Source: a virus (Duplodnaviria > Heunggongvirae > Uroviricota > Caudoviricetes). From it: 9,579 nucleotides of DNA. Location of the stretch: the IMG/VR virus record IMGVR_UViG_2690316286_000014. One strand, given 5' to 3'. Position 1 is the stretch's first letter. Each line of letters begins with the position of its first letter. Positions 859 to 9,099 of this stretch are shown here, piece after piece. A model generated the notes under the pieces. That model worked only from the letters and a program-made list of their open reading frames with translations, was not told where the DNA came from and ran no database searches. The position numbers were made by a program, and so were the translations under genes.

Positions 859-882
859 ACAAAAAACCCGCCGAAGCGGGTT
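859..882 (-). terminator. Rho-independent terminator at the 3' end of the mok/hok transcript
   Basis: On the minus strand, a 7-bp stem AACCCGC/GCGGGTT (865-871 with 876-882) with loop TTCG is followed by TTTTTTG (forward A-run 861-866), about 70 nt after the hok stop codon. Confidence 0.6.
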
Positions 883-952
883 AAGTGCGGGTGCGTTGAG
901 GATGCCTGACACATCAGAGGTGGCGAGGGATTTCTCCCTCGCCTGGTCACTC

Positions 953-1108
953 TTACTCTCTAGATTCGTAGTCTACGAAGACAGCGACCTCCGTCTGGCC
1001 GGTTCGGATTCGTACCTCACAGAGGTCTTTCCTCGTTACCAGTGCCGTCGCTATGACGGTTAAACAGATGACGATCAGGGCGATTAACATCGCCTTTTGC
1101 TGCTTCAT
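953..1108 (-). CDS. hok: Hok/Gef-family membrane toxin (type I toxin, 51 aa)
   Basis: Translation MKQQKAMLIALIVICLTVIATALVTRKDLCEVRIRTGQTEVAVFVDYESRE has the Hok/Gef hallmarks: a single hydrophobic helix, the conserved TRKDLCEV and RTGQTEVAVF segments, and an acidic C-terminus. ATG at 1108 is preceded by AGGAG at a workable spacing. Confidence 0.85.
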   Translation of the reverse strand: MKQQKAMLIALIVICLTVIATALVTRKDLCEVRIRTGQTEVAVFVDYESRE

Positions 1109-1165
1109 AGCCTGCTTCTCCTTGCCTTTCGGCACGTAAGAGGCTAACCTACATGTGTTCAGCAT
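953..1165 (-). CDS. mok: Mok-like in-frame N-terminally extended reading frame enclosing hok (70 aa)
   Basis: ATG at 1165 is in frame with hok with no intervening stop (MLNTCRLASYVPKGKEKQA then the Hok sequence). This matches the in-frame MokC/HokC arrangement recalled for chromosomal hok loci. Confidence 0.5.
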   Translation of the reverse strand: MLNTCRLASYVPKGKEKQAMKQQKAMLIALIVICLTVIATALVTRKDLCEVRIRTGQTEVAVFVDYESRE

Positions 1166-1284
1166 GGATTGAGCCTCAGCTTAATGTTAAGCGTCTTGCA
1201 GGACGCGTAATGTTAACTGGGGCTTTTCTCTATCTGCCTTTTGGTGTTCATGCCTGAGGCAGATAGCCTCAAGCACCCATTATG

Positions 1285-1313
1285 ATTTTAACCAAAGTCT
1301 TTATATCTATAAA
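1285..1313 (-). promoter_or_regulatory. Putative sigma70 promoter for the mok/hok mRNA
   Basis: On the minus strand, -35 TTTATA (1313-1308) and -10 TAAAAT (1290-1285) are separated by 17 nt. The -10 overlaps the stop codon of the upstream peptidase gene; the predicted start near 1278 gives a leader of about 110 nt before the mok ATG. Confidence 0.3.
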
Positions 1314-2191
1314 GAGGCACAATATTACTCGATATATCATCATGTGTGCGCCTTATTCCAAACATTTTGGAAACAAAGCGTTCCCTCACTCCCGACATAT
1401 CCAGTATCTGCTTCCAAGAAGATATATCCAGCAATTCAACTGCACAGGAAAGTAAGCGAGGTTTTTCCTCAGGGATTAACTCATCCCCCATCTCTCCTTT
1501 AATCGTCCCTCTTTTATTTAGATGGATAAATCCCGTTCTCATTTGTTGTGGCGTAATCAGCCCCAAAACCGTAGCACGATAAATACACATGCGAAGACTG
1601 ATTTTCCATCGTTCTTTGAAATTAATTAGTGCATTCCAGTCAAGATGCGATCCTCGCATTTTAGGAAATTCATTAACGAACGAAACTCTAGGTACAAGGA
1701 ATGCGCTCGAAAAATAATCCGCATGATGTTCTGTAATTTTATCCCCTGTTATAATCCCTTCATGCAAAACAAGATGCCCCAGTTCATGACCGAGATCTGA
1801 GCGAAATCGACACACACTCTTTTTCGCGGAATTTCTAATTATCAATGGGCGTTTACTATTAATAGTAAACGCATCAATACGATCATCCACGCCAGATACA
1901 TGAGCAACAACAACCCCAATACTTTCCACGAAATTAACCATTGAAGATATCGGTCCCAGCCCCAACCCCCAATACCTTCTACAGGCCTCGGCAATTCTTT
2001 CAATATCTTCATCGGAGTTCAAAGGTAATCCGGACGTATCAGGAAAGTTCAATTCTGGAAGAACTATTTCTGTTTCCAAACACTTTACAAACTGCTCCAA
2101 AATTTCAGCTCGAGCCAGAATACTATTAGTTAAGGACTGCGTCCTTGATCTCTTGCTTCTGAAATGGCAGTTCTCGCTGTCTAATGGTGAT
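1288..2191 (-). CDS. ImmA/IrrE-family (Peptidase_M78 / COG2856-like) zinc metallopeptidase domain protein; C-terminal 301 codons visible, 5' part hidden by N-run
   Basis: 301 codons are open down to TAA at 1288-1290 in sequence of about 40 percent GC. HELGH sits at 1774-1788 (minus), followed by EHHADYFSSAFLVP, which fits the HEXXH...E..A..FA..LL.P pattern of ImmA/IrrE peptidases. The preceding DIERIAEACRRYWGLGLGPISSMVNFVESIGVVV also looks typical of that domain. About 130 residues C-terminal to the domain have no recognisable motif. Confidence 0.8.
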
Positions 2192-2687
2192 NNNNNNNNN
2201 NNNNNNNNNNNNNNNNNNNNNNNNNNNNNNNNNNNNNNNNNNNNNNNNNNNNNNNNNNNNNNNNNNNNNNNNNNNNNNNNNNNNNNNNNNNNNNNNNNNN
2301 NNNNNNNNNNNNNNNNNNNNNNNNNNNNNNNNNNNNNNNNNNNNNNNNNNNNNNNNNNNNNNNNNNNNNNNNNNNNNNNNNNNNNNNNNNNNNNNNNNNN
2401 NNNNNNNNNNNNNNNNNNNNNNNNNNNNNNNNNNNNNNNNNNNNNNNNNNNNNNNNNNNNNNNNNNNNNNNNNNNNNNNNNNNNNNNNNNNNNNNNNNNN
2501 NNNNNNNNNNNNNNNNNNNNNNNNNNNNNNNNNNNNNNNNNNNNNNNNNNNNNNNNNNNNNNNNNNNNNNNNNNNNNNNNNNNNNNNNNNNNNNNNNNNN
2601 NNNNNNNNNNNNNNNNNNNNNNNNNNNNNNNNNNNNNNNNNNNNNNNNNNNNNNNNNNNNNNNNNNNNNNNNNNNNNNNNNNNNNNN
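2192..2687. other. N-run (496 nt): gap or masked sequence inside the peptidase locus
   Basis: Uninterrupted n characters; length is not a multiple of 3. Confidence 1.
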
Positions 2688-3165
2688 CAAAACCTATCAG
2701 GGCTAAAAGCCACGTTGGAGGTTCGATATCTTCATCTTTTTTATTTGCAGATGGTAATTTTTCAGCCAGAACACGCCATGTAACATCATGTTCAAAATTA
2801 ACATCATCTTCAAAAAGAGATAACTGACGACACTCAACATCATTTTTACATAAGCGATGTTTCTTTTTTGGTGAATCCAGTTTATCGGTCACAAACTGTA
2901 ACGGCACCCTGTTCAGGGTAAACACAAAATTCAGAGGTGTTGAAAGAATCGCCACTCCTTTGAGTTTTTTATGATTTTTTACAAGAAAGTTTTTTATCCA
3001 TCCATAGGCCCTACATCCATTAATCCAGTTATCATCATACTCATGGCGATGGAACCATAATTCGCCAAGTACGTTAGCAAATTGCTGAAGAAGATTGATA
3101 ACAGATTTTTCATCCAAACAAGGATTGATTTCAAAACACGGTTGGAGATTCTGTTCAGACGGCAT
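2688..3165 (-). CDS. AT-rich hypothetical protein, N-terminal 159 codons visible; either the N-terminus of the peptidase protein or a separate upstream gene
   Basis: Open frame of 159 codons in sequence of roughly 30-35 percent GC, where random stops would be frequent. ATG at 3165 is preceded by GAGGG about 7 nt upstream. Translation MPSEQNLQPCFEINPCLDEKSVINLLQQFANVLGELWFHRHEYDDNWINGCRAYGW... has no HTH or other motif I can recognise. It shares a coordinate frame with 1288..2191 (the track's 639-aa ORF), but the N-run makes that uninformative. Confidence 0.6.
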
Positions 3166-3319
3166 AAGGTATCCCTCTCTCTTAAAACTCCGCTCATCTT
3201 TACGCAAAATTTTATTTTTGTAAACCTAATCTTTGGGGTATTTCACGAATTCGTCAACCAGTTGAACGAACTTTAACCACAATACATATTTATCTACATT
3301 GATATGAGTATCGCTAACA

Positions 3320-4734: not shown

Positions 4735-5350
4735 TTACTTCACAACTCCCGGAAAGCTGACATTTGAACGCCAGCTATCCCAGTTAAACGTCACCCACCG
4801 ACAACCGTTCATGGTCATGCGGTCCATAATNNNNNNNNNNNNNNNNNNNNNNNNNNNNNNNNNNNNNNNNNNNNNNNNNNNNNNNNNNNNNNNNNNNNNN
4901 NNNNNNNNNNNNNNNNNNNNNNNNNNNNNNNNNNNNNNNNNNNNNNNNNNNNNNNNNNNNNNNNNNNNNNNNNNNNNNNNNNNNNNNNNNNNNNNNNNNN
5001 NNNNNNNNNNNNNNNNNNNNNNNNNNNNNNNNNNNNNNNNNNNNNNNNNNNNNNNNNNNNNNNNNNNNNNNNNNNNNNNNNNNNNNNNNNNNNNNNNNNN
5101 NNNNNNNNNNNNNNNNNNNNNNNNNNNNNNNNNNNNNNNNNNNNNNNNNNNNNNNNNNNNNNNNNNNNNNNNNNNNNNNNNNNNNNNNNNNNNNNNNNNN
5201 NNNNNNNNNNNNNNNNNNNNNNNNNNNNNNNNNNNNNNNNNNNNNNNNNNNNNNNNNNNNNNNNNNNNNNNNNNNNNNNNNGGATTTGGCCTGGCTCAGC
5301 GCGTATTTTTGCCCGTCGTTCTGCACCTGATAATTCGCAAACGAGCATTT
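4735..5350 (-). CDS. Second, diverged DnaC-like helicase-loader copy (C-terminal 31 codons and a 23-codon internal island visible; remainder is N)
   Basis: 4735-4830 translates to IMDRMTMNGCRWVTFNWDSWRSNVSFPGVVK then stop, against VMDRMVMNGGRWVNFNWESWRPNVSHSRVVK at the end of the 5904..6650 protein. The island 5282-5350 translates to KCSFANYQVQNDGQKYALSQAKS against KCSFANYRAQNDGQRHALSQAKS. The two visible parts are not in the same coordinate frame across the 451-nt N-run, so the gene may be disrupted or the N-run length may not be exact. Confidence 0.5.
4831..5281. other. N-run (451 nt): gap or masked sequence
   Basis: Uninterrupted n characters. Confidence 1.
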
Positions 5351-5633
5351 NNNNNNNNNNNNNNNNNNNNNNNNNNNNNNNNNNNNNNNNNNNNNNNNNN
5401 NNNNNNNNNNNNNNNNNNNNNNNNNNNNNNNNNNNNNNNNNNNNNNNNNNNNNNNNNNNNNNNNNNNNNNNNNNNNNNNNNNNNNNNNNNNNNNNNNNNN
5501 NNNNNNNNNNNNNNNNNNNNNNNNNNNNNNNNNNNNNNNNNNNNNNNNNNNNNNNNNNNNNNNNNNNNNNNNNNNNNNNNNNNNNNNNNNNNNNNNNNNN
5601 NNNNNNNNNNNNNNNNNNNNNNNNNNNNNNNNN
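5351..5633. other. N-run (283 nt): gap or masked sequence
   Basis: Uninterrupted n characters. Confidence 1.
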
Positions 5634-7868: not shown

Positions 7869-8290
7869 TTAATGAACAATGACAGAATCGTCGGAAGACC
7901 CGCCGCCGCTGAAATGCGCTTTCCGGTAAACGGCCTGGACTGCATCATCATGCGCATCAATTGCCGTACTCAACGCTTCCTGCGCCGCCAGTAATGCACG
8001 GCGTTCCAGGGTATCGAAGATGCAGAGTCGGTGACGCAGCTCGCGCGGAAGAATTGCCAGAACCGCAGGGATCAGTTTCTGAATTTTTTCCCTTTGCGCT
8101 TTCGTTTCACCTTTCAACCAACGGTGATAGATATTCTGCTGATTGTTCCAGTCCTTGCCTGGTACAAGGGGCAATTCGCCGCCCCCCTGGCGCAGATATT
8201 CTTCAGTAATTGCGTTAGCGACCCACGCCTGCCCTTTTTCGGCTGCCAGGGCAACAGCACTGATTCGATGTGCTCATGCCTGATTTTCAT
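7869..8290 (-). CDS. YdaT/CII-like prophage regulator with an apparent frameshift near 8252-8256 (possible pseudogene or sequencing error)
   Basis: ATG at 8290-8288 overlaps the Cro-like stop (ATGA) and reads MKIRHEHIESVLL before drifting into rare codons and a stop. The coding-like frame with E. coli codon usage (...ALAAEKGQAWVANAITEEYLRQGGGELPLVPGKDWNNQQ...SDDSVIVH) is offset by one and has no standard start before the TTG at 8174 (track ORF 7869..8174). One extra base in the + strand run GCAACAG would join the two into about 140 aa, the size I recall for YdaT. Confidence 0.6.
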
Positions 8291-8529
8291 GAATCAACCG
8301 CTCCTATGCTGTTTTCGCTATGCTTACCGTCTGGGGGGAATACATCGTCAAGTCCACAATGAGCGCCAAGCCGATTAAGGGTAGAAACAATTTTTCTGCA
8401 CTCCTCTAGTCCAGGGGTACGAAAATTTGCTTCGTAATTTGCCAGTCGGCTTTGTATCCACCCTAACTGAACAGCAAGTTGTCTTTGAGACAGCCCAAGC
8501 TGTTTTCGATATGTTGAAATTTTGTTCAT
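8287..8529 (-). CDS. Cro-like XRE-family helix-turn-helix regulator (80 aa)
   Basis: ATG at 8529 with GGAGG 5 nt upstream. HTH segment LGLSQRQLAVQLGWIQSRLANYE. Divergent from the repressor gene. Confidence 0.85.
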   Translation of the reverse strand: MNKISTYRKQLGLSQRQLAVQLGWIQSRLANYEANFRTPGLEECRKIVSTLNRLGAHCGLDDVFPPDGKHSENSIGAVDS

Positions 8530-8625
8530 TGAAAACCTCCGATGACAATTTTAAACACACCTTGTGTTATATAGCCAAGCTGTTTTGTGTTTTATGTAAA
8601 TCACGATTCGTGATACAAGGATGCA
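8530..8625. promoter_or_regulatory. Divergent promoter/operator region of the immunity switch
   Basis: 96-bp intergenic region between divergent HTH genes. Contains the 7-1-7 inverted repeat ATCACGAtTCGTGAT (8600-8614), AACAC-N5-GTGTT (8554-8568) and TTGTGTT twice (8562-8568, 8585-8591). A minus-strand promoter candidate is -35 TTGGCT (8578-8573) with -10 TAAAAT (8553-8548). Confidence 0.55.
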
Positions 8626-9045
8626 ATGGAAAAAGAAAACGAAAAAATTGCCGCTAGTAGGCTCAATGACAAAATTGCAATGCGTCTTAAAGAGCGCAGG
8701 CAGAAGCTTGGTTTATCTCAAGGAAAACTTGCTGAAATCTGCGGATGGACGCAATCGCGTATAGGTAACTATGAGGCGGGCAGCAGAAATGTTGGAGTAC
8801 ATGACGCTGTCGTATTGGGAAAGGCACTTGGCATATCTCCTCCTGAGCTCCTCTTTGGAGAACAGGAATCTTCTGAATTGTGGTTAAATGAATCCCAACG
8901 AAAACTTCTTGAGTTGTTTAACCAGCTACCGGGCTCAGAACAACAACGAATGATTGAGCTATTTGAAGTCCGGCTAAAAGAAATCGATGAGTATGTAGAA
9001 AAATATTTGAGAGGCAGGATTAAAGATAATCCCCCACCGGAATAA
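8626..9045 (+). CDS. CI/DicA-like XRE-family HTH prophage repressor (139 aa), no LexA-like autocleavage domain
   Basis: HTH segment LGLSQGKLAEICGWTQSRIGNYEAG. The C-terminal LLELFNQLPGSEQQ resembles the DicA C-terminus as recalled. ATG at 8626 with AAGGA upstream; stop TAA at 9043-9045. Confidence 0.9.
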   Translation: MEKENEKIAASRLNDKIAMRLKERRQKLGLSQGKLAEICGWTQSRIGNYEAGSRNVGVHDAVVLGKALGISPPELLFGEQESSELWLNESQRKLLELFNQLPGSEQQRMIELFEVRLKEIDEYVEKYLRGRIKDNPPPE

Positions 9046-9075
9046 TGATCTTGCTATCACAGTAATATGCCAATC

Positions 9076-9099
9076 AGCCCGCTATCAGCGGGCTTTTTT
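9076..9099 (+). terminator. Rho-independent terminator downstream of the repressor gene
   Basis: 8-bp stem AGCCCGCT/AGCGGGCT (9076-9083 with 9087-9094), loop ATC, followed by TTTTT (9095-9099). Confidence 0.7.

Follow-up and report, generated by a model that had tools for sequence, protein, structure and literature searches.

The window, a 9,579-nucleotide stretch of DNA from a virus of the class Caudoviricetes, carries between positions 859 and 1313 a gene for a small toxin of the Hok family, a mok reading frame that extends it upstream in the same frame, a candidate promoter and a terminator on the minus strand and, on the opposite strand, a convergent promoter and the sequence of a putative Sok antisense RNA (Table 1). 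Every listed sequence part of the hok/mok/sok module was present and uninterrupted. No IS element or frameshift interrupting the hok locus was found, in contrast to K-12 hokC, in which IS186 lies 20 bp past the stop codon. The first-pass annotation, made from the letters alone, had described a complete-looking mok/hok type I toxin locus comprising a Hok/Gef ORF with an in-frame Mok-like extension, a promoter TTTATA-N17-TAAAAT, a 3′ terminator and a 9-bp stem-loop, and each of these features was recovered where it had been placed.

Table 1. Observed and predicted features of the hok/mok/sok region, in window coordinates
Feature	Position	Strand	Description and basis
hok/mok promoter	1285-1313	-	-35 TTTATA (1313-1308), N17, -10 TAAAAT (1290-1285); consensus scan, 9/12
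Full-length hok (mok-hok) mRNA, predicted	861-1278	-	~418 nt, from +1 G1278 to the T run past the terminator
tac element	1267-1278	-	5′ GGGUGCUUGAGG; pairs with fbi in the full-length mRNA fold
ucb (anti-SD box)	1219-1227	-	AAAAGCCCC; partner of the mok SD in the closed form and of tac in the open form; folds
mok Shine-Dalgarno	1174-1177	-	GAGG, 8 nt upstream of the mok AUG; read from sequence
mok reading frame	953-1165	-	70 aa, ATG at 1165, in frame with hok, common stop codon
hok toxin gene	953-1108	-	51 aa, MKQQKAMLIALIVICLTVIATALVTRKDLCEVRIRTGQTEVAVFVDYESRE; ORF list and Pfam HOK_GEF
3′ stem-loop	922-943	-	9 bp, GAAA loop; inverted repeat 922-930/935-943, 100% complementary
fbi element	889-901	-	CCUCAACGCACCC; complementary to tac; fold and duplex prediction
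Intrinsic terminator of hok mRNA	861-882	-	stem 882-865 and T run; terminator scan
Sok promoter	1122-1150	+	-35 TTGCCT (1122-1127), 17-nt spacer, -10 TAACCT (1145-1150); read from sequence
Sok antisense RNA, predicted	1157-1227	+	71 nt; transferred from annotated sokW and sokC
Sok terminator hairpin, predicted	1171-1225	+	repeats 1182-1190 and 1208-1216 form the middle arms, hairpin 1191-1206 the tip

Comparison of the Hok ORF with protein profiles confirmed its assignment to the Hok/Gef family, with a match to Pfam HOK_GEF (PF01848) that scores 80.6 bits (cutoff 22) and takes in the whole profile (positions 1-42 of 42). Two NCBIfam models remained below their cutoffs, NF007279 (Hok subfamily) with 50.7 bits against 73 and NF007290 (HokA equivalog) with 36.5 against 89; these models stand for other Hok subgroups, and membership in the Pfam and Rfam families is unaffected. 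The covariance-model search that had been proposed as a check of the locus gave a match of Rfam RF01794 to the hok strand (1278-1103) at 120.4 bits, with a gathering threshold of 59, over the full model (positions 1-157). At the protein level, Hok was identical to HokW at 48 of 51 positions, to the HokD proteins of E. coli prophages at 45-46 of 51 and to HokC at 38 of 50, the three changes relative to HokW being V20A, E50R and K51E. MokW of bacteriophage 933W has exactly the same 19-residue leader as Mok (19/19), and the annotated mokC/hokC and mokW/hokW pairs likewise end on one common stop codon. The Shine-Dalgarno sequence of mok in plasmid R1 is also GAGG (PMC9841398).

Scanned by itself, the hok promoter did not exceed chance, with 2 sites where shuffled sequence would yield 1.0. 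What speaks for it is that its -10 hexamer stops 7 nt short of G1278, the base corresponding to position 1 of the Rfam hok-leader model, and that the position of this hexamer is conserved in relatives, as TAGAAT in 933W and TATAAT in K-12 hokC. The stem-loop beyond the stop codon differs from that of 933W by one compensatory change, A939G with T926C. The protective 3′ stem-loop of R1 occupies a matching place (PMC9841398) and, by analogy, the stem-loop of the window may form the protective end of a 3′-processed, active mRNA. In a separate observation, the 3′ untranslated region (861-942, minus strand), which holds the stem-loop, fbi and the terminator, matched Rfam isrK over its full length, though with a score below threshold (31.2 bits against a gathering value of 50, E 0.001 for the whole window). 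A derivation of IsrK from a hok 3′ untranslated region was considered and rejected on context: isrK of Gifsy-1 lies directly downstream of the Q gene and overlaps the C4/a1b1 antisense families, no hok/sok locus was found near it in Gifsy-1, and the IsrK paper contains no mention of hok. The resemblance is probably that of two hairpins and a U tail, nothing more.

Folding of the full-length mRNA (1278-858) yielded a minimum free energy structure of -179 kcal/mol (z -8.5) in which the 5′ tac element is closed on the 3′ fbi element and the mok Shine-Dalgarno sequence is paired to the upstream ucb box. The tac/fbi duplex, evaluated with duplexfold, comprises 12 bp at -21.5 kcal/mol, and fbi keeps the same relative position, ~50 nt past the stop codon, in 7 related loci. 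The unconstrained fold of the 3′-truncated mRNA contained no tac/ucb pairing, showing instead a local 5′ hairpin with the mok Shine-Dalgarno sequence still on ucb; thermodynamics alone therefore does not reproduce the activation step, and a constrained comparison was used. When tac/ucb pairing was forced, it cost +13.0 kcal/mol in the full-length RNA and +1.9 kcal/mol in the 3′-truncated RNA, a change in the direction expected from the R1 model (PMC9841398). According to these computed energies, removal of the 3′ end would render the activating tac/ucb fold nearly isoenergetic. A weak match of RF01794 to the plus strand (1219-1378, 26.6 bits) probably reflects the near-palindromic 5′ hairpin and was set aside.

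The antisense RNA had been expected on the plus strand at roughly 1110-1230, with a promoter and an end that were thought impossible to place. The expected strand and interval are correct once the promoter is counted in the range, and the promoter, start and terminator could in fact be mapped unambiguously from sokW and sokC. A consensus scan returned no plus-strand promoter in 1100-1160 and no plus-strand terminator at 1171-1227, because TAACCT retains only 3 of 6 consensus positions (the whole Sok promoter has 7/12 matches to the sigma-70 consensus) and because the terminator helix contains bulges; Sok was instead mapped by homology. The 71-nt sokW annotation of 933W maps to 1157-1227 and the sokC annotation of K-12 to 1157-1233, both on the plus strand and both placing the 5′ end of Sok at G1157, 9 nt inside mok, with a discriminator of 6 nt between the -10 hexamer and the start. 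The promoter is identical to the corresponding region of sokW, and it keeps its position across 8 loci, among them hokC-type and R1-like ones. The published sokW primers YO-406, YO-422 and YO-597 match the window exactly, while the mutagenic primer YO-421 differs at T1145, A1147, T1150 and A1151, three of which lie in the -10 hexamer, and corresponds to the sokW 'pro-less' mutant. Such a -10 mutation abolished the antitoxin activity of sokW, and growth recovered in part when sokW was provided in trans (PMC8621323).

The predicted Sok RNA consists of a single-stranded 5′ tail of 14 nt, GUUCAGCAUGGAUU (1157-1170), a 24-bp hairpin and a terminal U tract, and folds at -30 kcal/mol (z -5.5). Its 5′ tail is antisense to the mok AUG and its long hairpin is complementary to the mok Shine-Dalgarno sequence; in this model the hairpin would also serve as the Sok terminator. 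Only two positions differ from sokW, 1180 in a bulge and 1200 in the apical loop. By homology, Sok thus appears delimitable, and neither missing nor visibly defective. The strand of the Rfam match calls for caution. The family RF01794, although named 'sok antitoxin', matches the sense strand of the hok mRNA and ends at the hok AUG, in the window (1103-1278, minus strand) as in two related loci (L003, 502-654; L004, 1501-1675), whereas the annotated sokC of K-12 and sokW of 933W lie on the opposite strand, inside the match. Automated annotation that trusts the strand of the match would assign Sok to the strand opposite its own, at roughly double its true length.

Mapping of Sok also accounts for a pair of 9-bp direct repeats that had been noted as flanking a small hairpin. 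Their coordinates were exact, but the folds indicate that they are the arms of the Sok hairpin, with the small hairpin as its tip, and not a separate element. The sequence TAATGTTAA occurs exactly twice in the window, compared with a mean of 0.07 in shuffles, of which 1 in 200 reaches two, and the repeat extends to 12 nt with one mismatch. As five to eight homologous loci retain the whole segment, chance does not account for it. As TAATGTTAA is close to its own reverse complement, positions 1181-1189 pair with 1208-1216 in Sok, the two central positions forming G·U pairs; on the hok strand these become C·A mismatches, and the same interval folds at -19.1 kcal/mol against -30 kcal/mol. Across 8 loci, 94.6% of cells in the Sok helix were paired, whereas slid partners reached 33-46%, and 2 pairs were compensatory, in what is a small sample with the structure taken from one of its members.

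The tip of this hairpin carries an 18-nt insertion, present in the window, 933W, phage Evi, E. coli prophage hokD loci, a Klebsiella plasmid and E. ruysiae, and absent from K-12 hokC, other hokC-type and R1-like loci and the Rfam consensus. Judging from these alignments, the insertion appears typical of hokW/hokD-type loci, common to all of them, and would give a Sok of ~71 nt. A search of GTDB representative genomes for the exact pattern of the Sok hairpin returned 11 loci. The exact hokW-type hairpin was also seen on very short contigs (L007, L010 and L011) labelled Xanthomonas pisi, a Haemophilus MAG and a Candidatus Scatousia MAG, as well as in PP818812.1 (H26), a record named Actinobacillus phage vB_Apl-pPE4. 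These odd-host records most likely reflect E. coli-type contamination or mislabelling and not a true host range.

The closest characterized relative of the locus is hokW-mokW-sokW of the Stx2 bacteriophages 933W and Sp5 (VT2-Sakai; AF125520, AP000422), with ~95% DNA identity from the mRNA 5′ end to fbi. Over this interval, 20 differences from 933W were counted in 386 aligned columns, two of them inside Sok, and the two loci share the 71-nt Sok, the 18-nt tip insertion, tac and fbi. Their hok promoter regions and terminators, however, are unrelated, homology starting near the -10 hexamer and ending just past fbi. The surroundings differ as well, since hokW of 933W adjoins L0139-L0141 near one end of the record whereas the copy in the window follows a Peptidase_M78 gene and precedes nin-like genes; the biological trigger may therefore differ. 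For hokW-sokW, it has been shown that HokW is toxic, that Sok neutralizes this toxicity, sokW protecting from its own promoter, and that RNase III cleaves the duplex; upon RecA-dependent prophage induction, sokW RNA vanishes and HokW appears (PMC8621323).

The same hok promoter and terminator are found in the E. coli prophage loci to which PGAP gives the name 'hokD' (including hokD/relF of the K-12 Qin prophage), with 94-96% DNA identity. In many E. coli O157 and other strains, these loci also show the same order, from the HTH/M78 gene through hok to DUF1367/DUF1364/DUF1133. The C-terminus reads VFVDYESRE in the Hok of the window compared with VFTAYEPEE in HokD, and the codons of the mok leader differ too. 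K-12 hokD, as Pedersen and Gerdes are said to have described in 1999, has no mok/sok leader, whereas the copy in the window has one. More broadly, the locus was matched in 4715 of 5426 complete E. coli genomes, the median number of places in a genome being 2. The best matches in E. coli reach 94-96% across the locus itself and as much as 98.7% in other parts of the window.

K-12 hokC (gef)/mokC/sokC displays the same architecture, with mok in frame and a common stop codon, the 5′ end of Sok at the equivalent base, the same tac sequence and a match to the same Rfam leader model. It differs by its more distant Hok, by a sokC of 59 nt that lacks the 18-nt tip insertion and by a 3′ untranslated region interrupted by IS186. 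The reference system, hok/sok (parB) of plasmid R1, contains the same elements, namely tac/fbi, the ucb anti-SD box, the GAGG mok Shine-Dalgarno sequence, the 3′ stem-loop and a convergent Sok (PMC9841398). It is nevertheless distant, as HokW, close as it is to the Hok of the window, is 44% identical to R1 Hok (PMC8621323). In an R1-like plasmid locus, hok and the ORF upstream of it do not share a reading frame, and RF01794 is unmatched at its gathering threshold; moreover, R1 hok/sok is plasmid-borne with a role in post-segregational killing, whereas the locus of the window is prophage-borne. As an aside, a Salmonella IncFIB plasmid (L020, 877-1024) has an R1-like hok with an extended C-terminus, and a group II intron domain (RF02012, 111.6 bits) follows it directly, a position which suggests an intron insertion into the hok 3′ region of this plasmid.

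Regarding the genomic context, the genes from a cro-like HTH gene (8529-8287) to hok are all on the minus strand and encode YdaT, DUF1376/YdaU, IstB-like/YdaV, DUF1627, DUF977 and HTH/Peptidase_M78 proteins, in the same order as in E. coli relatives. A divergent cI-like repressor gene (8626-9045, plus strand) is followed by a strong terminator-like hairpin at 9076-9094 on the same strand, and the interval 8287-9094 is the immunity region of a Rac-like (YdaS/T/U/V-type) prophage. Immediately upstream of hok, a protein with a Peptidase_M78 (ImmA/IrrE-like) domain is encoded at 1288-2190 (minus strand), and its stop codon (1290-1288) overlaps the hok -10 hexamer. No terminator was found between this gene and hok, which could thus also receive read-through from the prophage early operon; on the minus strand from the cro-like gene to hok, only weak terminator-like sites were detected, no more than in shuffles. 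Three runs of N (2192-2687, 4831-5281 and 5351-5633) mask 1230 bases in all. The first is spanned by an apparent '639-aa ORF' (1288-3207), at which E. coli relatives have two overlapping genes, for a 216-aa hypothetical protein and a 373-aa HTH/Peptidase_M78 protein. On the other side, a promoter-like sequence, TTGAAC-N18-TAGAAT (841-812, minus strand), lies just past the hok terminator. Next come a small ORF (757-563, or 55 aa when counted from the ATG at 730) and the first part of a DUF1367-like gene, which is cut off by the left end of the window.

Taken together, the region 859-1313 is very probably an intact hok/mok/sok type I toxin-antitoxin module of the hokW/hokD subtype, located in the early region of a Rac-like lambdoid prophage. 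This reading is supported by the Pfam and Rfam matches, by the ~95% DNA identity to the characterized hokW-sokW of 933W/Sp5 and by the predicted mRNA fold. To judge by its sequence, the module is an already known one, a near-twin of hokW-sokW from Shiga-toxin bacteriophages; its toxin function and RNA expression are predicted, with RNA ends carried over from annotated relatives.

Other explanations of the same features were weighed against this one. A locus that looks complete could be functionally dead, like most chromosomal hok loci of E. coli K-12, a point change blocking killing in what would be a decaying passenger of a cryptic prophage. The three residue differences between Hok and HokW and the 20 nucleotide differences from 933W across the mRNA would allow for this, as would a hok promoter that is not significant alone and masked bases that hide whether the prophage is intact. 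All known elements are present, however, and the differences either avoid paired positions or are compensatory; there is no insertion or truncation of the kind that affects K-12 hokC, the Pfam match is full length, and the Sok promoter and Mok leader are identical to those of the functional sokW/mokW. We therefore regard a dead locus as unlikely.

Far less probable is an absent or defective Sok, a worry raised by the first-pass annotation, which would leave the toxin checked only by mRNA folding or by some other factor. It draws on the failure of the consensus scan to report a promoter or a terminator for Sok, but the hexamers, spacer, start, hairpin and U tract are all present and identical, or nearly so, to those of the tested sokW, and the Sok strand folds with the stability given above; the worry was not borne out. 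That the two copies of TAATGTTAA might instead constitute a functional direct-repeat element of their own, a protein-binding site or a recombination scar unrelated to RNA structure, has in its favor that an exact 9-mer found twice, 26 nt apart, is rare by chance. In Sok, the copies nevertheless pair with each other at every base as part of one continuous helix of 24 bp, the hok strand folds far less well over the same interval, and relatives without the 18-nt tip insertion keep a hairpin at this place, with compensatory changes, all of which leaves this last explanation with hardly any credibility.

For the intact module, a mechanism can be proposed by extrapolation from R1 and hokW-sokW. The stable full-length hok mRNA would be translationally inert and would not bind Sok. 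Slow trimming of its 3′ end, to about the 943-922 stem-loop, would remove fbi, upon which the 5′ end would refold onto ucb and free both the mok Shine-Dalgarno sequence and the Sok target. Meanwhile, the convergent plus-strand promoter TTGCCT-N17-TAACCT would start Sok at G1157, and this abundant, short-lived RNA would pair with the trimmed mRNA and block translation of mok, hence the coupled translation of hok, the duplex being cut by RNase III. Once Sok transcription stops, Sok would decay and the reservoir of hok mRNA would be translated, the 51-aa Hok inserting into the inner membrane and causing growth stop or cell death. Prophage loss, a general shut-off of transcription or prophage induction, the last as reported for hokW-sokW, could each act as trigger.

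The position of hok raises a further and rather speculative idea, which we consider improbable although somewhat less so than a dead locus. Since hok is co-directional with the early-right operon, with the stop codon of the M78 gene over its -10 hexamer and only weak terminator-like sites before it, read-through during prophage induction could collide with the convergent Sok promoter and produce 5′-extended hok transcripts without the tac/fbi lock. The module would then serve the prophage as a built-in sensor of induction or an aid to lysis, and not for addiction. If true, such read-through would explain the RecA-dependent loss of Sok and appearance of Hok reported for hokW-sokW (PMC8621323).

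Beyond annotation, the locus matters little, being one more copy of a module found in most E. coli genomes. Its analysis is useful for the exact coordinates of Sok and its promoter, and for tracing the direct repeats to the Sok hairpin, whose arms they form by pairing with each other. A functional module would aid prophage retention or lysis timing, as shown for hokW-sokW.
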